This document shows, piece after piece, positions 11,431 through 51,900 of a stretch of 64,000 bases of DNA. Position numbers and translations under genes: made by a program. The first letter of the stretch is position 1; each line of letters opens with the position of its first letter. Under the pieces are notes generated by a model. The model had not been told where the DNA came from, ran no database searches, and saw nothing but the letters and a program-made list of their open reading frames with translations. The DNA comes from Candidatus Micrarchaeia archaeon (lineage in GTDB: Archaea; Micrarchaeota; Micrarchaeia; Anstonellales; Bilamarchaeaceae), in contig JBAZFC010000001.1 in the NCBI GenBank assembly GCA_041653635.1, forward strand, positions 335,426 to 399,425, given 5' to 3'.

Positions 11431-11549
11431 GCCGAGGTCACATAACCCGGTAGTGTGCCGGTCTCGAACTGGTTCCAATCCAAAACGGATAGGAGCCGTG
11501 TGAAAACCGGTTCCGCAAGGAATTGCAGGTTCAAATCCTGCCCTCGGCG
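11431..11549 (+). tRNA. tRNA-Ser (anticodon CGA) with ~36-nt intron near position 37/38 and long variable arm
   Basis: Acceptor GCCGAGG/CCTCGGC, discriminator G, anticodon stem CCGGT...ACCGG interrupted by ~36 nt (11469/70..11504/05), variable arm TTCCGCAAGGAATT, T-arm GCAGG-TTCAAAT-CCTGC. Confidence 0.7.
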
Positions 11550-24060: not shown

Positions 24061-24061
24061 T

Positions 24062-24077
24062 TGTAACCATGGTTACA
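24062..24077. promoter_or_regulatory. 16-bp perfect palindrome TGTAACCATGGTTACA (copy 1), 16 nt upstream of the thrS ATG
   Basis: Exact palindrome read directly; four copies in the window, all intergenic. Confidence 0.5.
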
Positions 24078-24093
24078 TTACAGGTGTGGGCTC

Positions 24094-25998
24094 ATGAAGG
24101 AACTTATCATACACGCGGACAAGGTTTCCTACGAAACGACAAGGAAAACGAAGGTCGCCGAGGAGATTTCCAAGGAGATGGAAAAGGGCGAGATGAAGGA
24201 CGTAATCTGGGCTCGTATTGCGGTGGAGAAGACGGACGAGGAGGACCTCCCTGGGATTGCGCAGCAGGCGGTTGAGGACCTGATTTCCGTTTCCGACCAA
24301 GTGAAATGCAAGAATGTCATGCTCTACCCGTATGCGCATTTGCTCTTTGGGAGCACACCTTCCTCCCCCGAGGCCGCAATACAGGTGATTAAAGATATAG
24401 AAGGGGCGCTGAAAGAGGAAGGCTTCAACGTGATGAGGGCGCCTTTTGGATATTATAAGAAATTCAAGGTTGATACCAAGGGGCATCCGCTCAGTGAACT
24501 CTCGCGGGTATTCACTCCGGGGATGAAAGCGGAGAAAAAGGAGATGAAGATAAAGAGCGTGGAGACTGAGGAGAAGGTTTCCTCATCCTTGCAGAAGGAG
24601 GCGGGGCTGAAGAGCAGGTTCTATGTTTTGACTCCGGACGGAAAACTTGTTGAGCATGAAAAGTTCAATTACAAGGGGCACGATGGGCTCCAGAAGTTCA
24701 TGACCTATGAGACGAAAAAGGTTCGCGCCTATGAGAAGGAGCCGCCCCACATAAAGATAATGAAGGAACATGAATTTGTGGATTATGAGCCTGGGACGGA
24801 CCAGGGGAACTTCCGCTGGTATCCAAACGGGCGGTTGATTAAGAAAATACTTGAGAAGAGCATAACCGATTTTTGTGTAGATTACGGAGCGATGGAAGTG
24901 GAGACGCCCGTGATGTATGATTTTGAGCACCCTACGCTGAAGAAGTATTTGGATAGGTTTCCTGCAAGGCAGTACGTGGTGCTTTCGGATGACAAGAAAT
25001 TGTTCCTTCGGTTCGCGGCGTGCTTCGGGCAGTTCCTTATGGCTACGGGAATGGTGATTTCGCACAAGCACCTTCCGTTGAAAATGTATGAGCTTACCCG
25101 GTATTCCTTTAGGCGGGAGCAAGGGGGGGAGCTTGCCGGGCTCAAAAGGTTGCGCGCATTCACGATGCCGGATATGCACGCCTTCTGCAGGGACATCCCG
25201 CAGTCGCAGGAGGAATTTGAGAGGCAGCTGGGATTGGGGATGTCGTGGCTGGATTCCGTCGGGTTGTTTGGGGCTGCGGAGATTGGGTTCCGGATAGAGA
25301 CTGCGTTTTATGAGAAGAACAAGGATTGGTACAAGCGGATGGTGAAGAAGATTGGGAAGCCGGTGCTCGTGGAGATGTTCGACGAGAGGTATGCGTATTT
25401 CATTACCAAATTTGAATTCAATTTCATAGATTCCATGGACAAGGCTTCTGCTCTCACTACTGTGCAAATTGATGTGGAGAATGCAGATACTTATGGGATA
25501 CATTATGTGGATGAGGACGGGAGCAAGAAGAAGCCGGTGATTACTCACGCATCCATTTCCGGGAGCCTGGAAAGGGTGGTGTATGCCCTCTTGGAAAAGG
25601 AAGGGATGCAGATGGAGAAAGGGGAGAAGGCGATGCTCCCCCTCTGGCTTTCGCCCACGCAGGTCAGGATTATTCCTATTTCTGAAAAGCATATGGAGTA
25701 TGCGGGGAAACTGTTTTCCTCCTTTGATGGGGTGCGGGCGGACATAGATGACAGGGTGGAAACCCTTGGAAAGAAGATAAGGCAGGCGGAGAAGGATTGG
25801 GTTCCCTACGTTGCGGTTGTGGGGGACAAGGAGATGGAGACCGGGAAATTGGCGATTACGGTTAGGGAAACTGGGCAGAAGAAGGAAATGAAAGCTGAGG
25901 AATTGGCTGCGGAGATTAGAAAGATTACTGAAGGGAAGCCGTTTGAGCAGCTCAGCCTGCCTAAGGAATTATCCTTGAGGCCAATATTCCACGGTTAG
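24094..25998 (+). CDS. thrS: threonyl-tRNA synthetase, archaeal type with N-terminal editing domain
   Basis: 634 aa; archaeal-style N-terminal editing domain, class II aaRS core (FRREQGGELAGLKRLRAFTMPDMHAF), C-terminal anticodon-binding domain. Confidence 0.85.
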   Translation: MKELIIHADKVSYETTRKTKVAEEISKEMEKGEMKDVIWARIAVEKTDEEDLPGIAQQAVEDLISVSDQVKCKNVMLYPYAHLLFGSTPSSPEAAIQVIKDIEGALKEEGFNVMRAPFGYYKKFKVDTKGHPLSELSRVFTPGMKAEKKEMKIKSVETEEKVSSSLQKEAGLKSRFYVLTPDGKLVEHEKFNYKGHDGLQKFMTYETKKVRAYEKEPPHIKIMKEHEFVDYEPGTDQGNFRWYPNGRLIKKILEKSITDFCVDYGAMEVETPVMYDFEHPTLKKYLDRFPARQYVVLSDDKKLFLRFAACFGQFLMATGMVISHKHLPLKMYELTRYSFRREQGGELAGLKRLRAFTMPDMHAFCRDIPQSQEEFERQLGLGMSWLDSVGLFGAAEIGFRIETAFYEKNKDWYKRMVKKIGKPVLVEMFDERYAYFITKFEFNFIDSMDKASALTTVQIDVENADTYGIHYVDEDGSKKKPVITHASISGSLERVVYALLEKEGMQMEKGEKAMLPLWLSPTQVRIIPISEKHMEYAGKLFSSFDGVRADIDDRVETLGKKIRQAEKDWVPYVAVVGDKEMETGKLAITVRETGQKKEMKAEELAAEIRKITEGKPFEQLSLPKELSLRPIFHG

Positions 25999-34775: not shown

Positions 34776-35972
34776 ATGGGATTGATGAGGCCGGACCACT
34801 ATTGCCACATATGCAAGGGCACCCGGAAGATGTGCGGGCTGGACTACTGCCCGCTCCTCAGCAAGCTTGCCGCCATGAGGAGGGGCGCTGAGAGCCTGGG
34901 GAAGAAAACAGTTTTTGGGGGGAGCGCGGAAGTATTTGTCGGGAGTTTCGGGTATCCGTCCGTTTCGTGGGGGCCGGTGGTGCCCCTGCAGGAGTATGCG
35001 GGCGAGCGGGACATATACGAGATGGGGTATGAGAAGATAATAGAACACAGAGTGAATGCGGTGCGCGGGAAGAGGTATGGGGGCATACGGCCCGTGGGGA
35101 AAATCGCTGATGAGACGCAGGATGTGGCGATGAGCGTGCGGCCCGTGGATGTGGAGATGCGGTTTTCCAAGGAGCCGGTTTTTGACATGAAGTTCTCGTC
35201 CGTGGCGCAGCCGATTGGGGCTTCCGGGACGATGAAGGACGTGCGGCTGTGCGAGAACCCTAAAATCCCGAAGAAAGCGGATGAACTATTGCAGGAAAAG
35301 GCGCGGGCGCGGGAGATTGTCACGGAGATGTTTGAGACCGGTTTGGATAATTATTACATTACGAAGGTTTTGTCAGCTGGATTGCTGGGGATGAAAGAAG
35401 ACAGGAAGATGGTGCCCACACGGTGGAGCATCACGGCGACGGACGACATGCTGGGGAAGCACTTGATGGGCAGGGTGCGGGAGTATCCAGAAGTGTCGGA
35501 CTTCTATGTGCTGAGCCATGAATCCCTGTCCAATCATTTTGAGATTCTCGTGATGCCCGGAAAATGGGAGTTTGAGAATTTTGAGGCGTGGTCGCCGGGC
35601 ACGATTTGGACGATGGGCGGCTCGGATTTCCGTGTGAGCGAGGAGCACGAGCTGTTTGAGGGGAGGACCACTTATGCGGATGCGCAGGCAGGGGGGTATT
35701 ATGCGGTTCGGATTGGAGTGCTGGAGTTTCTGGACAGGATAAGGAAGCAGGCGCGGGTGATGTCCATACGGGAAATTTATGAGGGCTACCAGGTGCCGGT
35801 GGGCGTGTTCCAGGTGAGGGAGAATGTGAGGGATGCGACGCTGAGCGTGAGGAAGTATTCTTCACTTTCCGAGGCGCTTGCTTCCATGGGGAGCAGGCTC
35901 CGGAAGGGGATTTCGGCGTATGCGGAAAGGAGCAAAATCCTCACGCAAAGAAGGCTTGATGAGTTTTTCTAG
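34776..35972 (+). CDS. Nre-family (archaeal DNA-repair-associated) protein, tentative
   Basis: ~400-aa ORF with N-terminal Cys cluster (CHICKG...CGLDYCP); family assignment from pattern memory; start uncertain (track ORF from 34719). Confidence 0.4.
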   Translation: MGLMRPDHYCHICKGTRKMCGLDYCPLLSKLAAMRRGAESLGKKTVFGGSAEVFVGSFGYPSVSWGPVVPLQEYAGERDIYEMGYEKIIEHRVNAVRGKRYGGIRPVGKIADETQDVAMSVRPVDVEMRFSKEPVFDMKFSSVAQPIGASGTMKDVRLCENPKIPKKADELLQEKARAREIVTEMFETGLDNYYITKVLSAGLLGMKEDRKMVPTRWSITATDDMLGKHLMGRVREYPEVSDFYVLSHESLSNHFEILVMPGKWEFENFEAWSPGTIWTMGGSDFRVSEEHELFEGRTTYADAQAGGYYAVRIGVLEFLDRIRKQARVMSIREIYEGYQVPVGVFQVRENVRDATLSVRKYSSLSEALASMGSRLRKGISAYAERSKILTQRRLDEFF

Positions 35973-35978
35973 GATTGG

Positions 35979-35996
35979 ATGTAACCATGGTTACAT
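35979..35996. promoter_or_regulatory. 18-bp perfect palindrome ATGTAACCATGGTTACAT (copy 2), ~50 nt upstream of the purF ATG
   Basis: Exact palindrome; about 20 nt upstream of a TATA-like TTTTTAAAAC element. Confidence 0.55.
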
Positions 35997-36045
35997 TTTA
36001 GCCTGGCAAACCTATGTTTTTAAAACAAAAAGGGGAATGTGAAAT

Positions 36046-37464
36046 ATGGAGAAAAGAGAAAGCTGCGGCATAGTCGCTGTGTTATCAAAAAACAACAAGC
36101 CCGTGGCGAATTATATTTACAACGGAATGCTTGCGCTCCAGCACAGGGGGCAGGATGCCGCCGGCATGGCAATCTACGACGGAAAAAAGCTGGTTGAAAA
36201 GAAGGGGCTCGGATTGGTCTCCCGCATATTTTCCGAAAAGGACATGGTGATGAAGGGTGGTATGGGGATTGCGCACACGAGGTACCCGACAACCGACACG
36301 TGCGAAATTGCCGATGTCCAGCCGTCCGTTGTGCAGAAGGCGGGGCTCGCCATTGCGCACAACGGCCACATCGCCAATTATACGGATTTGCGGAAGGAGC
36401 TGGAGAAAAAAGGCGCGAAGTTTGCGGGCACGGTTGATTCCGAAGTTATTGCGCACGTGCTTGCGGATGCGTTTGCTTCTGGGAAGGACATTGAGGGCGC
36501 AGTGAGGCACGCGATGGGCAAGCTGGATGGCTCGTATTCCGTGGTCGCGATAAAGGACGGCGTGCTCTTCGCATTCAGGGACCCGCACGCGATAAGGCCC
36601 TTTGAGCTCGGCGAGAGCGGGGATGCGTATTTTGCCGCATCCGAAACCGTGGCATTTGACATAAACGGGGCGAAGCACGTGGGGACGCTGGGCGGGGGTG
36701 AGATGGCAGTCATAAGCCCTAAGGGATTCCAGAAGAAGATGGTATCGCCATCCACTCATAGGCACTGCATGTTTGAATATGTATATTTCTCAAGGCCGGA
36801 CTCCGTGATAAACAGCGTGGAGGTGCACGAGGCGAGGAGGCGGCTCGGGGCTGCGCTTGCGAGGGAGGCGCCGGTGAAGGCGGACGTGGTCGTGCCGATA
36901 CCGGACACGGCGAGGACGGCTGCGCTTGAGATATCGCGTGTTCTTGGGATACCCTATGAAGAGGGCATAATCAAGAACAGGTATGTGGCGCGCACGTTCA
37001 TCATGCCGGACCAGAAGATGCGCGTGGGCGCGGTCAAGGCGAAATTGAACCCGATAAGGAGCGTTGTGGAAGGCAAAAGCGTAATCGTTGTTGATGACAG
37101 CATCGTCCGGGGGACCACGACCAGGGAGATACTGAAGATGCTTAGGGATGCAGGCGCGAAGGAGATACACATGCGCGTCACGTGCCCGCCGGTGATGCAC
37201 CCGTGTTTCTACGGGGTGGACATGTCCACTTACGAGGAGCTGATTGCCGGCAAGAAAAGCGTGGATGAGATAAGGAAATTCATAGGCGCGGACACGCTGT
37301 ATTATGTTTCATTGGACGGGCTGAAAAAGGCGATAGGGCTGGATCTCTGCACCGGATGCCTGGATGGGGATTACCCGACGGCATACGGAGCTAAGATGGC
37401 GAAGGAGAGGAAGGGCTGCGGAAAGGAAGGAGGAAAGGATTCACATGGCTGTGGCTGCGGTTGA
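36046..37464 (+). CDS. purF: amidophosphoribosyltransferase
   Basis: N-terminal CGIVAV nucleophile motif (Ntn glutamine amidotransferase), PRTase motif VIVVDDSIVRGTT. Confidence 0.9.
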   Translation: MEKRESCGIVAVLSKNNKPVANYIYNGMLALQHRGQDAAGMAIYDGKKLVEKKGLGLVSRIFSEKDMVMKGGMGIAHTRYPTTDTCEIADVQPSVVQKAGLAIAHNGHIANYTDLRKELEKKGAKFAGTVDSEVIAHVLADAFASGKDIEGAVRHAMGKLDGSYSVVAIKDGVLFAFRDPHAIRPFELGESGDAYFAASETVAFDINGAKHVGTLGGGEMAVISPKGFQKKMVSPSTHRHCMFEYVYFSRPDSVINSVEVHEARRRLGAALAREAPVKADVVVPIPDTARTAALEISRVLGIPYEEGIIKNRYVARTFIMPDQKMRVGAVKAKLNPIRSVVEGKSVIVVDDSIVRGTTTREILKMLRDAGAKEIHMRVTCPPVMHPCFYGVDMSTYEELIAGKKSVDEIRKFIGADTLYYVSLDGLKKAIGLDLCTGCLDGDYPTAYGAKMAKERKGCGKEGGKDSHGCGCG

Positions 37465-38989: not shown

Positions 38990-39490
38990 TCAGGGCGTCT
39001 TCTTTAGGCGGTCTTTCTTCACATTCCCCTTAGTGGTTTCCGCCGGGATTCCGATAGGCAGGATGCAGACCGGCCTGCCTTGTTCTTGGAATATCCCCTT
39101 CACCTCTTCATCACTGAACGCACCCACCCATACCGCGCCGAGGCCGAGGTCCGTGGCCGCCAATTGCGCATAGCCCGCGGCGAGGGATGCGTCTATTATG
39201 CAGAATAAATTTCCCCGTTCCCCGTATTTCTTTGAGGAAGACGCCGCATCCGCGAAGAAGACGAACACTGCCGGGGCATCGGAAATGAAACCCTGGTTGA
39301 AGGCGGCCTTTGCGAGCTTTTCCTTAGTTTCTTTTTCAGTAACCAGATAGAAATGGTAGCTCTGCAGGTTGCCTGCGGACGGGGCTAGGTTGGCTGCATC
39401 CTTAATTGTGTCTAGCTGCTTCTGCGCGAGGGGCGAGGGCCTAAACAGCCGCGTGCTCTTCCTTTCCCTTATGAGTTTTTGGAATTCCAT
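38990..39490 (-). CDS. nitroreductase family protein
   Basis: 166 aa; N-terminal RERKSTRLF motif and overall nitroreductase-like pattern. Confidence 0.75.
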   Translation of the reverse strand: MEFQKLIRERKSTRLFRPSPLAQKQLDTIKDAANLAPSAGNLQSYHFYLVTEKETKEKLAKAAFNQGFISDAPAVFVFFADAASSSKKYGERGNLFCIIDASLAAGYAQLAATDLGLGAVWVGAFSDEEVKGIFQEQGRPVCILPIGIPAETTKGNVKKDRLKKTP

Positions 39491-39542
39491 GGCTAAACCG
39501 CCAGCATCAAACTATTTAATCGTTTCACCACATATCAATACT

Positions 39543-42500
39543 ATGAACAAGCACCTGATTTTGCTATTTGCTATTTTTGCAGTGGTTGCCATCCAGGCGG
39601 CTTTTGCCGAAGCGCAGACGAGCTATCCGCGCACATGGGAGGATAGCGGATGGGTTGCGAACAACGAGCACATAATGGACCTGGGCTTCTTTGAGATTTG
39701 GTATAGTGTAGAGCCAACAAACAACATCAGCAGGATGGATGTATTGGGGATCATGCTTCCATTCCATGAAAGCTTAGAAGAGGCGGAGCTTGAGCAACTG
39801 TTGCCGGAATGCCACGGCATCGGCTGCAACTCAAGCTCGGAGCTTGAGAGTGCGTTGCGGCATAAGGAATATGCTGATGGCTTGCTGGATTTCGTACGCA
39901 TCGGAAGCGCCGCATCTACATCCCACCCGGCGTATGACGTCGCTTACGAATGGTACCTAATGCACTATGTGGGGGACTGGAAGGATGCCATGGATTGTTC
40001 ACTACGTGCCGTGGAGAAGGAGGGCGCGGAAGTAAACGGCAGGAGGCTCGCTGTAGAGGCGACTATGGAGGAAGTGGCTAGTTCTGGCATATGTGAATCT
40101 AGGTATTCCGGCCCCGCGAACTGGATATGTTATGCGACTGTGGATGATGTGAGGTGCAACAGCAGCGGGCTGGATGATTCAATCCCTGACATGACCTGGT
40201 ACCCGGCATGCATGAGGACGCATTGGGAAACCGAAACGGTGCTTGGGGAGAAGAACGCCAACATGACCGAAAGCTGGGAGGGGGCGCAGGCAAAACTATC
40301 CGAGCTTGAGGCGTATGCCCTAGACTCCAGGGCGCAGGCGACTGTGCTCATTGACTTGATGACTGCGACAGAACTTGATGGGATAACTGTAAGCGCGGAA
40401 ACCAGCGACATCGGTGGGGTTGCGAGCATAAGTGACGAGTATGCGATCATAAAAAAGGAATATGAAAACGGGAATAAAGCAATGGGGGGTGCGGACACAC
40501 AAGCGAACAGCAGGTCGGATGGATGGTATAAGAAAAAATATGACTCTTATTGGGTGGCTGCCACATATTACGACGACATAGTTGTGAATGGCGCTTTGCT
40601 GTTGGAGGACGCGGAAGCGGTCGTGGCGGATTTTGGAGGTGAGGCGCATGCCGCACTGGCACAGGCGCAGCGCAGCACGAGACTGACCGAGGCGGGGCAG
40701 GCACATCTGGTTGAAGCGGAAATTGCATGCAATTTTGCGGACGCGGAAACAAAGCTCGGCGTCCGGTTCGAGCAATACGGGTCGTGTAGGATGCACGCGC
40801 GGCTTGCGCTGGACGGCACGGACATAGAACAGGCTGCTGAATATGAGGCAGCCGTGCTAGAAGTTGAAAAGCTTATCCAAAATGCGACAACTGATGGGAT
40901 AGACACACGTAATGAGCAGGCGCTCTTCACCATTGTAAAGAACATGAAACCCACAGACGCGGTGGAGATTCTCTCAAGAATCAAATCCAGCATACTCGGA
41001 AAGGCAAGGGTGCTGTATGGGGGCCTGCCTGGAGAAAGGGAAGATGCGAAAGCGCTCATAGAGGGTGGGGGTAGCAGCTTCGCTTACATGAATTCCTGGC
41101 TGGAGAGGGAGGATTGCTATTCGGGAAACGACCTTGATTATGATTGCGCAATCGGTAGCCTGAAGATGATGCACAACGGGTACATGAACATTTTCAATGC
41201 GACCGCCGCCCGGGCTGGTGAAGTGGTGGGCAACGCGATGCTGGTTGATTATTATGAGACTACTACCGCCGCCAGCCTTGACGAAGACAGCGAATACACC
41301 TTGGTTGTGCGGGCCAGAAATACCCTGCCGATGGGAGCGGAGAATGCAGTCATATCAGTTCCAGCCGGCGCGGAGATAGGGAAGATGGACCTTGTTGATG
41401 GAGGCGAGCGCGTGAGGACCGTAGCGTACCAGGACGGGGTCGCGACCATACAGCTTGTGCAGGTTTCGGCTGGAGAAGAAGTGGTGCTTGAATTCAAGAA
41501 AGGGTACCGTCCCTGCGTCGCGTCTGGCATCCGCACCAGCGCGGTCGGGGATGCAATAGGCGGCGCAAAGGTGAGCAGGCAGATGAGCCTTGCCTGTTCA
41601 ATGCAGGTGAACTCAATCAATGTTGGTTCGGGTTTTGATTCTGCGGTGCTGGACGGCACGGCCCACGCAGTCACGGACGGAATACTCAAGGCAAGGATAA
41701 CAAAAGGGACGCATTCCCTGGGCATCGTTGAGCATGTTGCAGACGCGTACGGAATGGACAAGAGCACTGAGTTGGTGACTACAGCCGGGACGATGACGAC
41801 AGTTGCATATATGATAGACATCTCTCCAAAAATGGACCTGGACATGGTTCCAGTATGGGTGGATGAGAGTGGCAAGAGCCCTAGATCTATAGATGTTTTT
41901 GGCTATACTGGGGAGCAAATCAAGAATGTGAAGAAGGACGGTACTGGGGTAGTCTATTTTGAGATAAACGGCTTAGAAGCGGACAAGCTGGCTAAGGTGC
42001 GGGTGAGGTACGAATTCTCCAATATCAGCAGCTATGTTGGGGATAGGATTGATGAGTTGGAGGGTGTGAATATGGGCGGCGAGGCGAGGGCGCTCCTGGG
42101 CAATGCGTCAAACCTTTATGCAGCAGGCGATTACGCAGGTGCCCTGGCTGCGCTGCAGAGCACCGAATCCCAGATTGAGAAAGACGCGAAAGCTGCCGTA
42201 AAGGTGGCTGCGAAGGATAGTGAATTGAGAGCAGAAATTTCAGAGAAGGCGGCAGAACTGCGGGGTGCAATCAACATCGGCGAGGATAATGGTGTGGGTA
42301 GCCAATACCTCCCAGAGATGCGTGCAAGGCTCAGTGTATTGGAAGGCGCGCTTGCACAGAACCTGAGTGTGGGAGCGACCTCCAGCCCGCTTGAGGATGT
42401 GGATTTGGGATGGGAAGGAAAAGAAATAACCAAGATACAGAAATATGTCAAGGACAACGAGGCGAAGATAAAAAAGGATTGGATGGCGATTGGTGTTGAT

Positions 42501-43250
42501 GACGCAAACCTGAGCAGCGCCATTTCAGGGCTTGAGGCACAGGGTGCCGTGTTCTCTGGCACTATGACGCTAGAGGATGGAATGCTCGCACTTGCCGCGC
42601 TGGAAAATGCACAGGATGCGCTTGATGCCCTTAAGGTGAGGGAAGGGGCAAAGGATGCGGTAGAGCGTTCAGCACTATCCAATCTTATAGCCGGAGCCAA
42701 TAGTGTGCTTTCCGAATACGAGGATGAGTATTCAGACCTGCCGTCTGGAGACAGCATGCTCTCGCTCTTTGAAAAGAAGCCGAATGAGATAAAGACGCGG
42801 CTGACGGCACTGAACCGCAGCACCAATACTGATGCCGCAATGGTGGAGGCGGCGCAGCTTAAGGCGGACATGGAGAGCGTGCTCGGTTTCCTTAATGGGG
42901 AAGGGCTGCGAATGATTGCTTCTGCCACTGACCTTTACACCGAATCAAAGGCTACGCTGGGGGAGGATGAAAAACAGGATGTGGAAAACTCCCTGGAAAT
43001 GGCCAACGATTACCTTGACAGCGGCAGATTTGTGAAATCCATCCTGGCAAGCGAGAACACAATCAGCAAGTTGAATGGTGCGGAGTCGGTGGATAACGGG
43101 TTACTTGTTCTTGCCCTCACTGCGCTCCTAGTTATTGGTGCCGTGGCGCTATTGCTATTCCGGAAAGGCAATGTTTGGCCATCAGGAAGTGGTAGGAACA
43201 AACCGAGTTTGAGGAAGCTGAAGAAAATTGAGGTTGATGAATTCGACTGA
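39543..43250 (+). CDS. large cell-surface protein (~1235 aa), signal peptide + C-terminal TM anchor; possible S-layer/adhesin
   Basis: Start at MNKHLILLFAIFAVVAIQAAFA (track ORF from 39369 overlaps the nitroreductase gene); C-terminal hydrophobic helix LLVLALTALLVIGAVALLLF followed by basic tail; many N-glycosylation sequons. Confidence 0.6.
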   Translation: MNKHLILLFAIFAVVAIQAAFAEAQTSYPRTWEDSGWVANNEHIMDLGFFEIWYSVEPTNNISRMDVLGIMLPFHESLEEAELEQLLPECHGIGCNSSSELESALRHKEYADGLLDFVRIGSAASTSHPAYDVAYEWYLMHYVGDWKDAMDCSLRAVEKEGAEVNGRRLAVEATMEEVASSGICESRYSGPANWICYATVDDVRCNSSGLDDSIPDMTWYPACMRTHWETETVLGEKNANMTESWEGAQAKLSELEAYALDSRAQATVLIDLMTATELDGITVSAETSDIGGVASISDEYAIIKKEYENGNKAMGGADTQANSRSDGWYKKKYDSYWVAATYYDDIVVNGALLLEDAEAVVADFGGEAHAALAQAQRSTRLTEAGQAHLVEAEIACNFADAETKLGVRFEQYGSCRMHARLALDGTDIEQAAEYEAAVLEVEKLIQNATTDGIDTRNEQALFTIVKNMKPTDAVEILSRIKSSILGKARVLYGGLPGEREDAKALIEGGGSSFAYMNSWLEREDCYSGNDLDYDCAIGSLKMMHNGYMNIFNATAARAGEVVGNAMLVDYYETTTAASLDEDSEYTLVVRARNTLPMGAENAVISVPAGAEIGKMDLVDGGERVRTVAYQDGVATIQLVQVSAGEEVVLEFKKGYRPCVASGIRTSAVGDAIGGAKVSRQMSLACSMQVNSINVGSGFDSAVLDGTAHAVTDGILKARITKGTHSLGIVEHVADAYGMDKSTELVTTAGTMTTVAYMIDISPKMDLDMVPVWVDESGKSPRSIDVFGYTGEQIKNVKKDGTGVVYFEINGLEADKLAKVRVRYEFSNISSYVGDRIDELEGVNMGGEARALLGNASNLYAAGDYAGALAALQSTESQIEKDAKAAVKVAAKDSELRAEISEKAAELRGAINIGEDNGVGSQYLPEMRARLSVLEGALAQNLSVGATSSPLEDVDLGWEGKEITKIQKYVKDNEAKIKKDWMAIGVDDANLSSAISGLEAQGAVFSGTMTLEDGMLALAALENAQDALDALKVREGAKDAVERSALSNLIAGANSVLSEYEDEYSDLPSGDSMLSLFEKKPNEIKTRLTALNRSTNTDAAMVEAAQLKADMESVLGFLNGEGLRMIASATDLYTESKATLGEDEKQDVENSLEMANDYLDSGRFVKSILASENTISKLNGAESVDNGLLVLALTALLVIGAVALLLFRKGNVWPSGSGRNKPSLRKLKKIEVDEFD

Positions 43251-43252
43251 AG

Positions 43253-44752
43253 TCAGAAATCGCCTAGTCGGGACTGCCCTTTAGCCTGCACTGGAGCATC
43301 TTTTTGTATTTTGCTTTCTGGGGAGAACCTCTTCCTTTCCATTTCCTTCTGTAAAGAGAGGAGGATCTCCTTCATCTTCTGTTCCCGTTTCCTTGAGGCC
43401 CAGAAGTAGTATTCATCTCGCGTGGCGCGCGTCATCAGGACATGCACCGAGCCGTCCTTGAACCTGCCTGCGCGGCCCCTGCGTTGTATGGAGCGGATTT
43501 CGCTGGGTATGGGCTCAAAGAATATGACTGAGTCCACTGCTGGGATGTCAAGGCCCTCCTCCCCAATGGAGCTTGCAATCAATATTTTGAACTCATCTTT
43601 CCGGAACGCGTCCATTGTCTCCTCTTGCATCTTCCTTGTGAAGCCGTCCCGCTTGCCCACGAATATCTTTGAGGAAAACCCGTTCGCGTCCAACACCTCT
43701 TTTATCCTTGTTATCTGGTCCCGGTATTGCACGAACAGGATTACCTTGCTGCCTTTCATTGAAGAGAGGAGGGATAGTAATTTCAGGGTTTTGGGGTGGT
43801 CGCCTGCGGATGATAGGATTTTGAATGCAATCACCATCCCCGGGCGTGCCACCAGTGCGGCAGATGTCCTGGAAGCCGAGGATTTCAGTTTTGCGATGTA
43901 ATTCAGCGCAGGGTGCGGCCCTTGTGTCTGCAGCAACTCCTGCAGATGTATTAGGTGTAAAAGGGCGTAATAGTAGGAAAGAAAGGTATATTTTGCTGGG
44001 TGGCGCATCGCCTGCAGCCTGCGGCCGTACAGCATGAATTGTTTCTTTGAAGTTATGGGTGGTTTCTGGTAGCCGTTGCCTAGTTTTTGGGAAAATTCCC
44101 TGATGAGTGTGATTAGTTGGTTGTCGGCTTCCTTCAATTCGGGGGATAAATCCACTGGAATCCACGACGCAGCCAGTTGTTTTGTGTATGGCTGGATTGC
44201 CGCGTCTGTTTCCACCATAATTTCAATGTTGTTTATGTTTAGGTTGGAGAGAACCTCTTTGATCCTTGCCCTGTCCCCACCAGGAGAGGCGGTGAGTGCT
44301 AGGGAAATGCAGTTTTGCGGCAGGCTTCCGGCGATGGGAACGTACGCGTAATCCCCCACTGCACGATGCGCTTCATCAAAAACAGCCAACGAGGTGTTTT
44401 TCGCAGGGTAAATCCCATTCTTCAGGTCGTTTTTGATTGTTTGGGGGGTAGAAACGAATATCTTTGCTGTGTACAGGGCGGCGCGCTTCTTTTCATTAAC
44501 TTCCCCAGTCACTAGGGAGATGTCCTCGGGGCCAACACCTAAAATTTTTTGTATTGTAAGATAGTGCTGCCTGGCCAATGGTTTGGTTGGTGTCAGGAAC
44601 AGGGATTTCCCTACAGAAAATAAGTTTTCTTTTATCAATGCAAGTGCGATGTGTGTCTTTCCAAGGCCAGTTGGAAGGACAACTAAAGTGCTGCCGTTCC
44701 GCTTCACAGATTCCACAATCTGGGACTGGTAGGGTCGCAGGTCTAACTCCAT
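43253..44752 (-). CDS. superfamily-2 DEAD/DEAH-box helicase, Hef/FANCM-like helicase domain without nuclease domain
   Basis: Walker A LPTGLGKT, DEAH box FDEAHRAVGDY, motif VI QRRGRAGR; start at MELDLRPYQ (44752) preceded by AT-rich promoter-like sequence. Confidence 0.75.
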   Translation of the reverse strand: MELDLRPYQSQIVESVKRNGSTLVVLPTGLGKTHIALALIKENLFSVGKSLFLTPTKPLARQHYLTIQKILGVGPEDISLVTGEVNEKKRAALYTAKIFVSTPQTIKNDLKNGIYPAKNTSLAVFDEAHRAVGDYAYVPIAGSLPQNCISLALTASPGGDRARIKEVLSNLNINNIEIMVETDAAIQPYTKQLAASWIPVDLSPELKEADNQLITLIREFSQKLGNGYQKPPITSKKQFMLYGRRLQAMRHPAKYTFLSYYYALLHLIHLQELLQTQGPHPALNYIAKLKSSASRTSAALVARPGMVIAFKILSSAGDHPKTLKLLSLLSSMKGSKVILFVQYRDQITRIKEVLDANGFSSKIFVGKRDGFTRKMQEETMDAFRKDEFKILIASSIGEEGLDIPAVDSVIFFEPIPSEIRSIQRRGRAGRFKDGSVHVLMTRATRDEYYFWASRKREQKMKEILLSLQKEMERKRFSPESKIQKDAPVQAKGQSRLGDF

Positions 44753-44853
44753 ATAAACATAAATTATGAGAAGAGAATATAATGGGAGGGGAGGGTGTGT
44801 TTCCACTAATATATCTTCGTATGATATGATAAATGATATGAATTTAAAGTAAT

Positions 44854-44869
44854 TGTAACCATGGTTACA
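44854..44869. promoter_or_regulatory. 16-bp perfect palindrome TGTAACCATGGTTACA (copy 3), between the Hef-like helicase start and the pepA 3' end
   Basis: Exact palindrome in an AT-rich intergenic region. Confidence 0.5.
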
Positions 44870-45132
44870 TTGTGATTGAATGTTGGTTTATCTATACGAC
44901 ATAAAAACGGCTTTACGGAATTATAACCGAGTCAAACGCGTCTTTTATTACAACCTAAATCGCAGGGGGTTGAACAAATATTACTGGAAAACAAAATCCG
45001 TCCTTGTTGTGCCCGATAATCTAGGGCATGTTGTGGATCCTTTTTTCAAAGAGTACTCAAAATTCCTCATAGTTTACAAAATAAAATGCCGTGAAATAAA
45101 GGAACTGAAATAGTGGAAATGGGGGGCGTCCC

Positions 45133-46636: not shown

Positions 46637-47206
46637 CTACCGCATCCTATTAATCTTCATAGGGTTGCCTTCAGCACGCGAGCCGGCAGGCACGTCCCCA
46701 TTCACGAACGTCATTGCCGAAACGACCGCGCCTTCCCCTATCTCAACGCCCGCGAGCACCGTCGCGTTAGCGCCCACCAGGGCGCCCCTCCCCACCACAG
46801 TCCTGCCGGTGCGAAGTTCATTCTGCAGGAACTCGTGCGCGAGTATCGTCGCGTTGTACCCTATTATGCATTCATCCCCAAGCTCAATCAGCTCCGGGTA
46901 AAAGACATCAAACATCGCCATGAGCCCAACCGCCGCGCCCTTCCCCACTTTCATGCCGGTCATGCGCAGCAGCGCCCTCTTCATCGCGAGCGATGGCGCG
47001 TACCTTGAGAGCTGCACCAACACAAAATTATACACGACCCTTATTGGATTGCGGAACCGCGTCCATTGGTTGAGTGAATTGCTTCCCGAGACTTTCAGGG
47101 ACTTCAGCTTCCTCAAATATCCACCTAGAATTTGGATTCTATATGCTCCACAGCATTCCTGAATATCCTCAGGCCCTCGCCAACCTTCGTGGCGCCGCGC
47201 GTCCAT
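46637..47206 (-). CDS. hexapeptide-repeat acetyltransferase (left-handed beta-helix family)
   Basis: Imperfect hexapeptide repeats (IGYNATIL, VGRGALVGANATVLAGVEIGEGAVV); the ATG at 47206 would overlap purQ by ~80 nt, so the start is uncertain. Confidence 0.55.
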   Translation of the reverse strand: MDARRHEGWRGPEDIQECCGAYRIQILGGYLRKLKSLKVSGSNSLNQWTRFRNPIRVVYNFVLVQLSRYAPSLAMKRALLRMTGMKVGKGAAVGLMAMFDVFYPELIELGDECIIGYNATILAHEFLQNELRTGRTVVGRGALVGANATVLAGVEIGEGAVVSAMTFVNGDVPAGSRAEGNPMKINRMR

Positions 47207-47901
47207 GCCGGATGGTTCGTGAAATGGTTGTACGCCTCCGGGTGCGGCATGAGCCCGAATATCCTGCCGCTCTCATCGCAGATGCCGGCAACACCGCCCA
47301 CCGAGCCGTTCGGGTTGTAAGGATATTCATCAATTTTGCCTTCCGGGCTGACATATTGGCATGCAATCGTGTTCTTGCCGACCATCTCTCCCAAGACTTC
47401 GCGCCCTGACGGTATGAACCTCCCCTCACCATGCCTCACTGGAAGGTCCATGTACGCTATCCCCTTAGTGAAGACGCACGGGCTCTTCTGGTTCATCGCC
47501 AGCCGTACCCACCTATCTTCAAACTTTCCAGACGCATTGTAAGTAAGAGTCACGCGCTGCGTGAAATCCGGCACAGGAAGCAGCCCCATCTTCACCAGCG
47601 CCTGGAAGCCGTTGCATATCCCCAGCACAAGCTTCCCACCCTTCACGAATTCTGAGATTTCCCCGCCAGCCCTGTGCCTCAACCTGTTCGCGAGAACCCT
47701 AGCCGAGCCGAGGTCGTCCCCGAACGAAAAGCCGCCGGGCAGGATGAGCATGTTGTAATCCCGGAGCAGCGACGGAGAGTCGGTCACTTCGCTCACATGC
47801 CTTATGTCTGCCTCGCCCCCCGAGGTGCGCATAGCATACGCGGTCTCATGGGGGCAGTTTATGCCGTACCCATCAAGCACGATGGCCTTCGCCTTCACCA
47901 T
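47125..47901 (-). CDS. purQ: phosphoribosylformylglycinamidine synthase, glutaminase subunit PurQ
   Basis: Class I glutamine amidotransferase pattern: LILPGGFSFGDD, nucleophile GICNGFQAL, LMPHPE near C-terminus; start MVKAKAIVLDG. Confidence 0.85.
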   Translation of the reverse strand: MVKAKAIVLDGYGINCPHETAYAMRTSGGEADIRHVSEVTDSPSLLRDYNMLILPGGFSFGDDLGSARVLANRLRHRAGGEISEFVKGGKLVLGICNGFQALVKMGLLPVPDFTQRVTLTYNASGKFEDRWVRLAMNQKSPCVFTKGIAYMDLPVRHGEGRFIPSGREVLGEMVGKNTIACQYVSPEGKIDEYPYNPNGSVGGVAGICDESGRIFGLMPHPEAYNHFTNHPAWTRGATKVGEGLRIFRNAVEHIESKF

Positions 47902-50876
47902 TTCAACCCCCCGCTCCACGCGTCGCGCAGCTCAAAGACGTCCTCGTTCACAAGTGCGTTGTCGCCGTTCCTCAGCACCACCCGCTTGTCCCCGCGCACC
48001 CTTCCCGCCTTCTTTGTTTTGGTGCCGAACATCATCTTCTCAAACTTGAACGCGTCCTTCTCGCGCACGCTCACAATGAACCTGCCCGCGCTTTCCGAGA
48101 ACAGGAGCGCCGCATCCTCGTCCGTGTCCTTGCTTATCAGCGAAAGGTCCATTTCCGCACCGACCTTGCCGCCCATCGCGCATTCCGCGAAAGCCGCCGC
48201 AAGCCCGCCATCTGAAACGTCGTGCACGCTCCGTATGGTGCCCCGTTCCATCGCCTTGGAAAGCGCGGCATAGAGTTCGGAGTTCTCCTTCACCCTGACC
48301 TTGGGCATCCCCGCGCCCACGCCGCCGTGCAGCTTGAAATATTCGCTCCCGCCCATCTCGTGGTGCGTCGTGCCGAGCACGTAAATGGCGTCCCCGACCT
48401 CCTTGAAGTCCGAGCTCGCTATCTTAGTAACATCCTCAACTTTCCCCACCACGGTGACCAGCAGCGTTGGGTTTATGGAGTGCTTGCTGTCCCCCGAATA
48501 ATAGTCATTCTTCATGCTGTCTTTTCCGGATATTATCGGGGTCCCGTATCCCACTGCCGCATCATGCATCCCCCTCGCCGCCCTCACGAGCTGCGCAAGC
48601 TTGAAGTCCCCATCGGGATTGCGCGGCCCCTTTATCGGGTCGGGCCAGCAGAAATTGTCCAGGCAGGCGAGATAGCCGAACTTCGCCCCGCACGCGATTG
48701 CGTTCCGCACGCCCTCATCCACGGCGTTCATCGCCATGTGGTATGCATCTTCCGTATATCTCGGGCAAACCCCGTGCGCGACCGCCAGCCCGCCGTTCAT
48801 TCCCAATATGGGCCTGAACACGCCGCCGTCCGAAGGGGCGTTCCCCTCCATGAGCGGCTTGAGCGCGCTCCCCCCCTGCACCTCGTGGTCGTACTGCCGT
48901 ATCACCCATTCCTTTGACGCGATGTTCGGGGACGCGAGCAGCGCCTTCAGCGCCTCGCCGTGCTGCATCAGCGGCCTGCCCGGCGGGATAGGCATCCTGT
49001 CCTTCCACACCGCCTTGAGATGCATCTGTGGGACGCCCTCGTGCAGGAATTGCATATCCACATACGCGACAGTGCTCTTTCCGTAGAGGATGTGGAACTT
49101 CCCGCTATCCGTGAATGTCCCCGCTATGCTTGCCTCCACACCATGCTTCTTCGCCAGCTTCTCTATTCCCGGCATCTTTTCCGCCGGCACCGCGAGCGTC
49201 ATCCTCTCCTGCGATTCCGAAAGCAGTATCTCCCACGGGTCCAGCCCGGGGTATTTCAGCGGGCACTTGTCCAGATGGACCTCGCAACCGCCGCTGAGCT
49301 GCGCCAGCTCGCCTATGCTTGAAGAAAGCCCGCCGGCCCCGTCGTCCGTGACCGCTTCGAACAGCCCGAGGTCCCTCGCCTCAAGCACCATGTCTATGAC
49401 TTTTTTCTGTGTTATCGGGTCGCCTATCTGCACCACGCTGCCAGCTATTCCCGTCGTAAGCTGCTGTGAAGAGAAAGTCGCCCCATGAATCCCATCCTTC
49501 CCTATTCTCCCACCGACCATCACCGCAAGGTACCCTGGTTCTATCTTCTTCCTCGCCGTCTCCCTGCCGCCTATCTCGTGCGGCATCATCCCCACCGTTC
49601 CCGCATACACGAGCGGCCTCGCCGTGTAGCATTTCTCAAACACGACCGAGCCATTAACCGTCGGAATCCCGACCATGTTCCCGCCGTGCTCTATACCCCT
49701 CACGACGCCCTTCGCAATCCTCTGCGGATGCAGGCATCCCTTTGGCACATCTTTCTCGTCCAGGTAGCCGAAACACAGCACGTTTATGTTCGCGATGGGC
49801 TTCGCGCCCATACCTGTCCCCAGCACGTCCCTGTTCACGCCGAGTATTCCAGTGAGCGCGCCCCCGTACGGGTCCAGCGCCGAAGGGGCGTTGTGCGTCT
49901 CCACCTTCACCGCGATGTCGTTCTCATGGTCAAACCGGATTATGCCGCCGTTGTCCTTGAACACCGAGACCACGTACGGCTTCCGCACCTCATCCGTTGC
50001 GGAGCGGATGTATGTCTTGAATATGGAATCTATCTTCTCTTCCCTCCCCTCAACTCCTTCACCTTCCTCCGAATAATCTATTTTGGCGTTGAATATCTTG
50101 TGCTTGCAGTGCTCGCTCCAGGACTGCGCCAGGGCCTCCAGCTCAACGTCGGTCGCGCCCTTGCCCAACCCCATTTTTTCCCGTTCCTTCCGCACCGCCG
50201 CCTTGGCGTAGTGCGCCTTTATCTCGCGCATCTCCTCCAGGGAAAGGGCGAGCGTCCGCTCGCGGCTGATTTTCACCAGCTCCTCGTCCGGAACCTGGAG
50301 GTCTATCTCCTCGGCGACCGGGGCATGGTCCAGCTCCACGCGCGGAATGTACGGCTCAAACGCGCCGCTCTCCGGCTCGTAAACCTTCCATGCCTGTATC
50401 ACTTCGTTCGCCAGCAGCTTCTTCGCTATTTCCGCCAGCACGGAATCGTCGTCAAAATCCGCCCTTATCGCATACACCCGCGACGTGTATGCCTCCACCT
50501 CCTTTCCGAGCACGTCCCTTACTCCCTCAACCGCGGTGTTCCCCTCGTTGTCGGTCATCCCGGGTAGGAAGCCCACCTCTATCCTCCAGTAATCAGGATA
50601 GAACGGCGCCTTGAATGAGAACTCCTCGGAAACGGCGTCGGCGAAAAGCTCCTTGCCCAGCTTCTCCATCTCCCCATCCGAAAGTTCGCCGTAGAAATTG
50701 TATGCGCGCACGATGGCGACGTCGGTTGGCTTCACGCCTGCGAGCTCTGCTATCTTCTTTGCCAGAGGGGCGGCGCCGGGGTCTCTAAGGTCGCCTTTTG
50801 GCCTTACCTCTATGCGCCGCGCACCAAGAGGAAGGGGGAGCCCCCCCTTCTCTTTAGGGTAATCATAACCCCCCAT
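47895..50876 (-). CDS. purL: phosphoribosylformylglycinamidine synthase PurL with N-terminal PurS-like extension (PurSL-type)
   Basis: 993 aa; tandem PurM-like/AIRS domains typical of PurL; N-terminal ~80 aa resembles PurS; immediately upstream of purQ. Confidence 0.8.
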   Translation of the reverse strand: MGGYDYPKEKGGLPLPLGARRIEVRPKGDLRDPGAAPLAKKIAELAGVKPTDVAIVRAYNFYGELSDGEMEKLGKELFADAVSEEFSFKAPFYPDYWRIEVGFLPGMTDNEGNTAVEGVRDVLGKEVEAYTSRVYAIRADFDDDSVLAEIAKKLLANEVIQAWKVYEPESGAFEPYIPRVELDHAPVAEEIDLQVPDEELVKISRERTLALSLEEMREIKAHYAKAAVRKEREKMGLGKGATDVELEALAQSWSEHCKHKIFNAKIDYSEEGEGVEGREEKIDSIFKTYIRSATDEVRKPYVVSVFKDNGGIIRFDHENDIAVKVETHNAPSALDPYGGALTGILGVNRDVLGTGMGAKPIANINVLCFGYLDEKDVPKGCLHPQRIAKGVVRGIEHGGNMVGIPTVNGSVVFEKCYTARPLVYAGTVGMMPHEIGGRETARKKIEPGYLAVMVGGRIGKDGIHGATFSSQQLTTGIAGSVVQIGDPITQKKVIDMVLEARDLGLFEAVTDDGAGGLSSSIGELAQLSGGCEVHLDKCPLKYPGLDPWEILLSESQERMTLAVPAEKMPGIEKLAKKHGVEASIAGTFTDSGKFHILYGKSTVAYVDMQFLHEGVPQMHLKAVWKDRMPIPPGRPLMQHGEALKALLASPNIASKEWVIRQYDHEVQGGSALKPLMEGNAPSDGGVFRPILGMNGGLAVAHGVCPRYTEDAYHMAMNAVDEGVRNAIACGAKFGYLACLDNFCWPDPIKGPRNPDGDFKLAQLVRAARGMHDAAVGYGTPIISGKDSMKNDYYSGDSKHSINPTLLVTVVGKVEDVTKIASSDFKEVGDAIYVLGTTHHEMGGSEYFKLHGGVGAGMPKVRVKENSELYAALSKAMERGTIRSVHDVSDGGLAAAFAECAMGGKVGAEMDLSLISKDTDEDAALLFSESAGRFIVSVREKDAFKFEKMMFGTKTKKAGRVRGDKRVVLRNGDNALVNEDVFELRDAWSGGLKW
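50839..50876. repeat. 38-nt exact repeat, copy A (covers the purL start codon and first 12 codons)
   Basis: AGCCCCCCCTTCTCTTTAGGGTAATCATAACCCCCCAT identical to 52610..52647. Confidence 0.8.
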
Positions 50877-50928
50877 AGCGCGTTCTTGTTGGGCAAAATA
50901 TATAACACTTATTTATTGTGCGGGTGGA

Positions 50929-50946
50929 ATGTAACCATGGTTACAT
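50929..50946. promoter_or_regulatory. 18-bp perfect palindrome ATGTAACCATGGTTACAT (copy 4), between divergent purL and the hypothetical gene at 50995
   Basis: Exact palindrome ~20 nt upstream of TATA-like elements on both strands. Confidence 0.55.
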
Positions 50947-50994
50947 AGTGTGTGAAACAGGGTTTTATTAAGATTTCATGGCATAATAAGAGCC

Positions 50995-51900
50995 ATGCAA
51001 TGCGCATTCCACCCAACACTGTTCCACACCGCTCCCGGGATTGGGCGCAGGCTGGGGTTCAGGGGGCGGATGAACATCCTCCAGGCGATGCGCCACTTCA
51101 AGGACAGCATCCCCACGCACGCCGAGTTTGACGAGCTGCTCCATCTCACCCCAGGCAAGACGCCGCGCGCCCTCACCACCAACGCGGGCACCGGCCTGAT
51201 GCACACCGGCACGTTCCTTGCCTATCCCGGCAAGGGCCGCACATTCCCCGGTCTCTTTGAGTACAAGGACCCCCAAACCAGCCTCTGGCTCTGCCTTGAC
51301 ACCAGGTTCTGCAGCGGCAGGTCCGGCATAGCGGTTATCGTGGAAGGGGATTTCACCCTGCATCACAGCGGAAGGAGGATCCAGATTGTCCCCCAGAACA
51401 AGCCCGCGGTGCTTGAGCAATTCCCCCAGTTCCCCAGCTGGTACGGGTACCACCTTTGCAGGAGGCTGCCCGTGCTGAAAGACGGGGTGGAGGACGAATC
51501 CGGGTTCCACCCCGGCCGTTTTTTGCAGCGCATAGAAGGCCCGTGGCTGGGCGCCCTGGCCCGCACCATGAACAGCGGAAACTCAGACGAGAACTACGTC
51601 CATGCATACGGCGGCCCTTCCCTGGACCGCGCGGTGATCGTCTGGGAGTACTACGCCACGGATGCCAAGCCGGAAAACCCAGCGAACCGCAGGGTATTCA
51701 TAATGCCCGGCGATGGCAGGCCCAAAATCATAACCCCAGACCATGCCGTCCGGGGCCCACCCGCAGAATACCTGAAGGCAAAGAACAGGTGGGACCAGGA
51801 CATGATACTCCATGGCATGGACCCGGCGCACTGCCCCCATCCGGGCCCGCCGCCTATGCCCGAACAATACTTGCCTTCCCCGAAGGCAGGCAAGGCATGA
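50995..51900 (+). CDS. hypothetical protein (~300 aa)
   Basis: ORF with balanced composition, TATA-like TTTTATTAAG ~25 nt upstream; antisense ORF 50968..51510 judged a shadow frame; start may be Met 26. Confidence 0.4.
   Translation: MQCAFHPTLFHTAPGIGRRLGFRGRMNILQAMRHFKDSIPTHAEFDELLHLTPGKTPRALTTNAGTGLMHTGTFLAYPGKGRTFPGLFEYKDPQTSLWLCLDTRFCSGRSGIAVIVEGDFTLHHSGRRIQIVPQNKPAVLEQFPQFPSWYGYHLCRRLPVLKDGVEDESGFHPGRFLQRIEGPWLGALARTMNSGNSDENYVHAYGGPSLDRAVIVWEYYATDAKPENPANRRVFIMPGDGRPKIITPDHAVRGPPAEYLKAKNRWDQDMILHGMDPAHCPHPGPPPMPEQYLPSPKAGKA

Follow-up and report, generated by a model that had tools for sequence, protein, structure and literature searches.

What is a perfect 18-bp palindrome, ATGTAACCATGGTTACAT, doing between the genes nre and purF of an archaeon? 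The question is raised by a stretch of 64,000 nucleotides (hereafter the window) from a Candidatus Micrarchaeia archaeon. A preliminary description of this DNA placed the palindrome about 50 nt before the purF start codon and about 20 nt before a TATA-like element, noted the identical 18-mer upstream of purL and the 16-bp core at two more intergenic sites, and proposed that all this reflects a dimeric regulator of purine synthesis. The positions are as described (Table 1), Pfam confirms the identities of purF and purL, and the idea of a cis-regulatory palindrome of the dimeric-factor type has gained support. The idea of a regulon confined to purines has not. I will argue that the palindrome is probably a protein-bound promoter element that serves a broad regulon for nucleotide and DNA synthesis.

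Within the window, the 16-bp core, TGTAACCATGGTTACA, occurs four times, every copy intergenic. Two copies are identical over all 18 bp, and the other two (TTGTAACCATGGTTACAT) retain the core exactly and match the 18-mer at 17 of 18 positions. The window holds no further copies with up to three mismatches and no isolated half-sites worthy of note, TGTAACC being confined to the four copies. Dinucleotide shuffles of the window give on average 0.01 matches to the 18-mer and 0.05 to the 16-mer, and four were found in none of 100 shuffles. The flanks of the four copies are unrelated to each other. The sole Rfam matches in the window are four tRNAs, none of them at a palindrome site.

The distribution of the element was examined by scanning one genome from each of 185,579 species for the exact pattern WTGTAACCATGGTTACAW. 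The scan yielded fixed blocks of 8 kb, and all copy numbers derived from it are lower bounds; gene calls in these blocks were made with my own script for open reading frames (ORFs). At least 117 loci carry the pattern, about 83 of them in metagenome-assembled genomes (MAGs) of Candidatus Micrarchaeota/Micrarchaeia, a phylum now called Microcaldota within the kingdom Nanobdellati. These contain at least 92 core sites in at least 27 species-level MAGs, with GC contents from 41 to 58% and up to 8 copies found in one MAG. The matches outside Micrarchaeota are about 35 single ones in unrelated bacteria. The organisms that carry the palindrome are known from metagenomes alone. Being present in at least 27 MAGs, with no more than 8 copies found in each, the palindrome is neither a peculiarity of one genome nor the high-copy dispersed repeat that the preliminary description had set out as a possible undoing of its proposal. 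It is instead a word conserved across a phylum-level lineage, the Micrarchaeota, of DPANN archaea.

The word is also sharply bounded. Its two half-sites, TGTAAC and GTTACA, are separated by 4 bp; the 16-bp core does not vary, and the consensus is the full 18 bp. In 644 kb there are 96 exact cores as against 4 copies with one mismatch and 1 with two, a scarcity of variants that is due in part to the scan having selected exact matches; the window and contigs retrieved by way of their proteins show the same pattern. The composition of the flanks is nearly random from position +2 outward (95 sites), with no longer repeat, terminal repeats or target duplications around the core, and flanks so unrelated exclude a longer mobile repeat such as a miniature inverted-repeat transposable element (MITE).

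The position of the sites with respect to genes is equally constrained. Considering 96 sites (92 from the scan and the 4 of the window), 95 are intergenic, as compared to the 14 of 34 chance matches elsewhere that fall inside long open frames. The sole truly intragenic copy (L013:6870-6885) lies in a large helicase-like ORF, where it encodes D-V-T-M-V-T-K. In 400 site-free genes of the same loci, TATA-like hexamers peak 27 to 25 nt before the ATG (109, against a background of about 20), which implies that mRNAs in this lineage are mostly leaderless. The distance from the edge of the core to the ATG has a peak at 36–43 nt (21 sites), almost no occurrences at 20–35 nt, and a broader shoulder at 47–55 nt. 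An AT-rich box follows 11–16 nt past the core, and between the two is an A/C-rich stretch resembling the TFB-recognition element (BRE), so that the modal core, at about −39 to −54, abuts the upstream edge of BRE/TATA. In the window, the palindromes of purF and purL lie about 10 bp further upstream, with TATA boxes 25–26 nt before the ATGs, a spacing that for purF indicates an mRNA predicted to be leaderless or nearly so. Among pur genes generally, the site is upstream of TATA, with the core ending 36–69 nt before the ATG. Helical phasing of the distances beyond the modal class was considered and rejected (p = 0.81 at 10.5 bp; p = 0.19 at the best period from 9.5 to 11.5 bp). The location at most targets is the activating position in archaea, which speaks against a repressor operator.

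The genes served by the element were defined as those whose start faces a site, after clustering of the flanking ORFs and a scan with Pfam (numbers of species are given in parentheses). Purine synthesis accounts for the largest single class: purF (at least 8), purL (5), purP (3), purN (2) and purE (1). Others act in pyrimidine and nucleotide metabolism (pyrD, carB, and a nucleotide-kinase-like protein), in DNA replication and repair (DNA ligase (3), the primase subunit PriL (2), and helicase (at least 7)), or in translation and basal transcription (thrS (4), hisS (2), Pelota-like and diphthamide-synthase-like proteins, TBP, and one tRNA gene). There remain GT2 (2), an Fe-hydrogenase-like protein (2), a 206-aa membrane protein (2), a 301-aa orphan (2), a 240-aa protein with multiple zinc ribbons (4), and a few singletons. 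About one annotated target in two belongs to nucleotide or DNA synthesis, a proportion far in excess of what these functions occupy in a genome of about 1000 genes. The earlier proposal of a shared purine regulon thus holds insofar as purine promoters carry the site, and fails insofar as the site is not theirs alone.

Several of these targets merit a word of their own. The site lies 65 nt upstream of the TBP gene (L041:1934-2242, minus strand), and at the tRNA gene (L034:5901-6000) the order is site, 24 nt, TATA. At the 240-aa target (found in L009, L014, L104 and L106; for example, L014:5288-6013, minus strand) the site is 38–41 nt before the ATG. The protein has several CxxC zinc-ribbon motifs and a long tail rich in K and E, with no family assignment. 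Neither it nor the 301-aa orphan has informative homologs.

The exact 16-mer has been kept across species at the promoters of purF, purL, thrS, ligase, purP, purN and hisS, while the flanks cannot be aligned. For purF, 8 of 10 relatives keep the palindrome, and the relatives that retain the purF or purL site have proteins only about 51–80% identical. An identical 16-mer at orthologous promoters whose surroundings have diverged is a classical phylogenetic footprint; the preliminary description had named its absence from purF and purL promoters of close relatives as a point against it, and the site is present there. Membership is nonetheless plastic, since purF lacks the site in L122 and L125 and purL lacks it in L056. 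The targets would therefore seem to constitute a plastic regulon centered on nucleotide supply and DNA synthesis, with some genes of translation and basal transcription.

How such an element might work can be pictured as follows. A dimeric, sequence-specific protein, peculiar to Micrarchaeota, would bind the half-sites TGTAAC and GTTACA. Bound directly upstream of BRE/TATA, it would touch TFB/TBP, and the most likely effect would then be activation or the setting of a promoter boundary. At one gene, which encodes a small basic protein of 77 aa, the site follows TATA, falling either short of the start codon or on it, and the effect there would be auto-repression.

Some observations weigh against a promoter element of this kind. 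Sites in L033, L086, L105 and L097 lie between convergent gene ends, with no promoter to serve, and the copy in L013 is intragenic. The thrS site is only 4–16 nt from the ATG, with no nearby TATA box (there is none between copy 1 and the thrS ATG in the window, and the same arrangement recurs in L022, L119 and L070). The motif varies far less than transcription-factor sites typically do, albeit in a sample picked on exact matches. Finally, the search for a binder covered the 8-kb site blocks and one 64-kb window, which leaves room for an unlinked regulator.

Could the palindrome be an operator specific to purines, at which a purine-sensing repressor shuts off pur genes in the manner of Escherichia coli PurR? 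A perfect palindrome of 16–18 bp is what one would expect in that case, and the prominence of purine genes fits as well. At least half of the annotated targets, however, lie outside purine synthesis (ligase, PriL, helicase, thrS, hisS, TBP, pyrD, carB, GT2 and the orphans), purD in the window has no palindrome, purF or purL does without it in some relatives, and the pur sites, upstream of BRE/TATA, overlap neither TATA nor the transcription start site (TSS). I consider a purine-specific operator unlikely.

A second explanation is that the palindrome, or a factor bound to it, is a roadblock or insulator at the ends of genes in a very compact genome. About 30 of the 96 sites begin no more than 7 nt past the stop codon of the upstream gene, the stops of nre and secD lying inside or against the palindrome; several sites have convergent genes on either side; and so exact a motif is more than a small regulon would require. 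Against this, many sites occur between divergent starts with no gene end nearby, the distance to the downstream TATA or ATG is sharply preferred, the functions of the targets are enriched, and the 8 or fewer sites found per MAG are far below the number of gene boundaries. The RNA hairpin is also weak, at −4.4 to −7.0 kcal/mol, and mostly no stabler than that of shuffled sequence (z between −0.3 and −0.6 in three copies, −2.2 in the other). An RNA hairpin or intrinsic terminator was rejected on these figures, and no consistent T-run follows the palindrome at the window copies. As the sole function of the palindrome, a boundary is quite unlikely. Still, the sharpness of the motif, the sites at convergent ends and next to stops, and the TATA-less thrS suggest a possible added role, and the factor bound at these promoters may double as a roadblock or mark a boundary.

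One gene end deserves separate mention. The 3' end of nre lies inside the palindrome or within 7 nt of it in 11 loci (including L037, L048, L091, L095, L105, L010, L086, and the window at 35970-35996), and this holds whatever follows: purF, purL, carB or a convergent gene. The linkage of nre to the palindrome seems older than that to any single downstream gene.

If a protein binds the palindrome, which protein is it? Of all targets, the 77-aa gene alone recurs in each lineage examined, and TGTAAC-N4-GTTACA is found at the gene in 19 of 19 distinct loci encoding a homolog, down to 28–33% identity. In the core clade, the exact palindrome stands 2–10 nt before the ATG and directly behind a TATA-like box, and in most homologous loci the site is between TATA and ATG or over the ATG. 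The more distant homologs vary the theme: L124 (55% identity) has a degenerate palindrome 16 nt upstream; in L129 and L130 (33% and 28%) TGTAACTATGGTTACA overlaps the start codon, so that the protein begins MVT; and in L122 and L131 (47% and 32%) a symmetric variant with a different center, TGTAACTATAGTTACA, abuts the TATA box from upstream. At least nine distant members begin MVT or contain VTMVT, which is what the palindrome encodes when read in frame. The 77-aa gene of L122 and of L125 keeps its site while the purF promoter is without one. The linkage of the site follows the 77-aa gene and not its neighbors; the helicase gene is not adjacent in L122 and L124.

The protein itself is very basic (17 K/R against 6 D/E). 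Its family comprises 17 clusters in an index of 5.8 billion proteins; when 1.84 billion proteins were searched exhaustively with a profile, 70 representatives (at 50% identity) emerged. Nearly all members stand alone, at about 75–105 aa, and the extensions of longer members proved to be only low-complexity or spurious. Eighteen members gave no match in Pfam or NCBIfam at E ≤ 10, Cas2 profiles included, a profile search of the PDB found no sequence match, and a library of viral folds gave only unnamed ones. An AlphaFold2 model (pLDDT 92) predicts a ferredoxin-like domain, beta-alpha-beta-alpha-beta, for which Foldseek ranks Cas2 first (probability 0.99, E = 5e-3, TM 0.55–0.62). Helix 1 bears a nearly invariant N-x-x-K-R-x-F-Y-Y (K19, R20, F22, Y23 and Y24 are invariant), a TKS motif precedes strand 2, and the residue that closes strand 1, Asp7, is conserved.

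Auto-repression in archaea usually works through a site placed downstream of the TATA box and ahead of the start codon, and when just one target of a regulator is conserved everywhere, it tends to be the gene for the regulator itself. On both counts the 77-aa protein is the leading candidate for the factor that binds the palindrome, an identification that must be called tentative. Since the protein has no recognized DNA-binding motif, its role as binder is something I infer. No helix-turn-helix or LacI-type regulator is found by Pfam among about 70 site-adjacent proteins of the 8-kb blocks and the window. The fuller proposal, that it is a sequence-specific, autoregulated transcription factor built on a Cas2/ferredoxin-like fold and controlling a nucleotide-supply and DNA-replication regulon throughout the phylum, is plausible but short of probable.

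The 77-aa gene of the window is bracketed by an 11-nt inverted repeat, AATAGTGGAAA on the right, with the arm overlapping the stop codon of the gene. Where 2.8 matches to the repeat would be expected in 721 kb there are 33, nearly all of them set at constant distances from the palindrome, and the repeat is present also in L056, L069, L073, L108, L122, L125, L127, L128, L130 and others. In L130 both arms have changed in concert (TTGCCACTATT and AATAGTGGCAA), and in L129 the arms are imperfect. It may serve as a second operator or as an RNA motif, or be a repeat of the inverton type. L090:1037-1200 consists of a left arm, the palindrome and a right arm, with about 38 nt from the palindrome to the right arm and a tRNA gene adjoining; it looks like a cassette that has lost its 77-aa gene.

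These features bring to mind a selfish system like those of REP/RAYT (REPtrons) or MITEs, in which the 77-aa protein would be akin to a nuclease or transposase and the palindromes its dispersed substrates. The palindrome copies are exactly identical, a small gene with a predicted ferredoxin fold is bracketed by inverted repeats that change together in L130, L090 resembles the cassette minus its gene, and the fold is common to Cas2, VapD and HUH enzymes, with Asp7 conserved. In a REPtron, as here, short palindromes are intergenic. Unlike a REPtron, the repeat that brackets the gene differs from the dispersed palindrome, copies are few, and the palindromes occupy promoter-phased positions, at a fixed distance from the TATA box and free of the conserved flanks or target duplications of a mobile element. 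The 77-aa protein has no evident HUH-Y motif or catalytic tyrosine, and its cassette is syntenic in most genomes. Orthologous promoters are occupied in species whose proteins are about 50% identical, so the copies are old and vertically inherited. A selfish system is very unlikely to be the explanation. Finally, chance or base composition accounts well for the 35 or so matches in unrelated bacteria, the number expected, and is practically ruled out for the rest, given 0.01–0.05 matches expected in the window and a count of at least 92 copies for 27 small genomes that all belong to a single phylum.

The coordinates of the features in the window are collected in Table 1.

Table 1. The palindrome copies of the window, with the genes and promoter elements that adjoin them.
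Feature	Position	Strand	Remarks
Palindrome copy 1, TTGTAACCATGGTTACAT	24061..24078		Begins 1 nt past secD/F-like stop; end 15 nt (core 16) from thrS ATG
thrS (archaeal threonyl-tRNA synthetase with editing domain)	24094..25998	+	Pfam tRNA-Thr_ED, tRNA-synt_2b, HGTP_anticodon
Palindrome copy 2, ATGTAACCATGGTTACAT	35979..35996		Begins 7 nt past nre stop; ends 49 nt before purF ATG
purF TATA-like box, TTTTTAAAAC	36017..36026	+	20 nt past palindrome, ~25 nt before ATG
purF (amidophosphoribosyltransferase), then pheT	36046..37464	+	Pfam GATase_6/7 and Pribosyltran
DEAD/ResIII helicase	43253..44806	-	Divergent from 77-aa gene; gene caller puts start at 44752
Left arm of 11-nt inverted repeat, ATTAGTGGAAA on minus strand	44800..44810	-	
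TATA-like box of 77-aa gene, ATTTAAAG	44842-44849		Copy 3 falls between box and ATG
Palindrome copy 3, TTGTAACCATGGTTACAT	44853..44870		9 nt (core 10) before ATG of 77-aa ORF; also upstream of divergent helicase
77-aa basic orphan protein	44880..45113	+	Candidate cognate DNA-binding factor; Cas2-like ferredoxin fold predicted
Right arm of 11-nt inverted repeat, AATAGTGGAAA	45109..45119	+	Overlaps TAG stop of 77-aa ORF; then hairpin GGGGGGCGTCCCC (GGGG..CCCC) and T-run
purL (993 aa), then purQ (47125-47919)	47895..50876	-	Pfam AIRS, AIRS_C, FGAR-AT_linker, PurS; purQ by GATase_5
purL TATA-like element, AAAATATATAAC	50896-50907		
Palindrome copy 4, ATGTAACCATGGTTACAT	50929..50946		Divergent promoter region of purL and 301-aa orphan; 52 nt (core 53) to purL ATG (-), 48 nt (core 49) to 301-aa ORF ATG (+)
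TATA-like element of 301-aa orphan, TTTTATTAAG	50963-50972		
301-aa orphan ORF	50995..51900	+	Divergent from purL; no Pfam or NCBIfam match

The site of copy 4 is retained in L080, L048, L037 and L091. The 301-aa orphan on one side of it has only six homologous clusters, and the 49 nt that separate it from the site are unchanged at the ortholog in L080. On the other side, purL has an N-terminal region resembling PurS, with a weak Pfam match to PurS at residues 98–165, and the gene appears to encode a PurS-PurL fusion. The same purF protein as that of the window is encoded also on metagenome contigs, and other genes of the window (Nre, the editing domain of the archaeal ThrRS, TFIIE-alpha) are of archaeal type.

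Two further observations concern the remainder of the window. A 119-nt tRNA at 11431-11549 (plus strand) is called by Rfam (42.8 bits) and not by ARAGORN; it probably contains an intron. The helicase gene is adjoined by an ORF of 1235–1293 aa (39369-43250, plus strand) without a Pfam family, which has syntenic counterparts, likewise without a family, of 1223–1229 aa in L126, L127 and L128.

As a transcription-factor site the palindrome is a known kind of thing; this particular one is new, and cleaner than usual. A search of the literature found no match to the motif, nothing relevant on regulation in Micrarchaeota or DPANN archaea, and no Micrarchaeota regulon. To my knowledge, almost nothing has been learned of gene regulation in DPANN archaea, most of which are uncultured. 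The palindrome offers a concrete regulon that can be tested: one 16-bp word, in a fixed place on leaderless promoters of at least 27 species, that links the synthesis of purines and pyrimidines with DNA ligase, primase, helicase and some tRNA synthetases. It points to a single small orphan protein as candidate regulator, testable without culturing. Should the 77-aa protein bind, it would represent a new fold class for DNA binding and, as the regulator, open a new class among the DNA-binding regulators of archaea; otherwise the palindrome can serve as affinity bait for the real factor. As regulator, the protein could be the switch that couples the growth of host-dependent DPANN archaea to the availability of nucleotides.

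It remains to place the element among known systems. The E. coli PurR box (LacI family) and cre-type operators (TGTAAGCGCTTACA) are likewise perfect or nearly perfect palindromes of 14–16 bp found at several purine promoters. Sites of the PurR/LacI type are bound by a dimer, and the half-site TGTAA(C/G) would seem to resemble those of the LacI family. The analogy with the PurR box drawn in the preliminary description is nevertheless formal only. The consensus of the PurR operator is a 16-bp palindrome, ACGCAAACGTTTGCGT, with a central CG, whereas TGTAACCATGGTTACA has CATG, with two extra bp, at its center. The promoter here is archaeal, with the site upstream of BRE/TATA and not over the core promoter or TSS; the regulon extends to genes of DNA replication, pyrimidines and tRNA synthetases; and no LacI-type gene was seen near any site in the scan of site-adjacent proteins. 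In each attribute that could be compared (sequence and center, placement, scope of the regulon), the palindrome departs from an operator of the PurR type.

For the 77-aa protein, the closest predicted fold is that of Cas2, a likeness that may extend to strand 1, YDI/YDL with its conserved Asp, and strand 2, KSV. It differs from Cas2 and VapD in having no Pfam Cas2 match, three strands in place of four or five, and a stand-alone gene with the palindrome in its own promoter; no cas1, other cas genes, or CRISPR arrays are present in the neighborhoods examined. Dimers of Cas2 bind duplex DNA without regard to sequence, and I know of no case in which sequence-specific binding has been shown for the Cas2/VapD fold class.

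The best functional comparison appears to be with archaeal sites whose effect depends on position: the Thermococcales motif TGM, recognized by TrmBL1/Tgr, and the upstream activating sites of the Ptr2/Lrp type in Methanocaldococcus. These too are archaeal palindromes whose place relative to BRE/TATA varies by gene class, a site upstream bringing activation and one downstream of TATA repression. Sequence and lineage differ, no TrmB or Lrp is implicated here, and the 16 bp are invariant across 27 species. What the Micrarchaeota palindrome has in common with TGM is a recurring dyad at a coherent set of genes, kept at orthologous promoters in a defined place with respect to BRE/TATA. Both geometries are represented, upstream at genes of metabolism and replication, and between TATA and ATG at the 77-aa gene.

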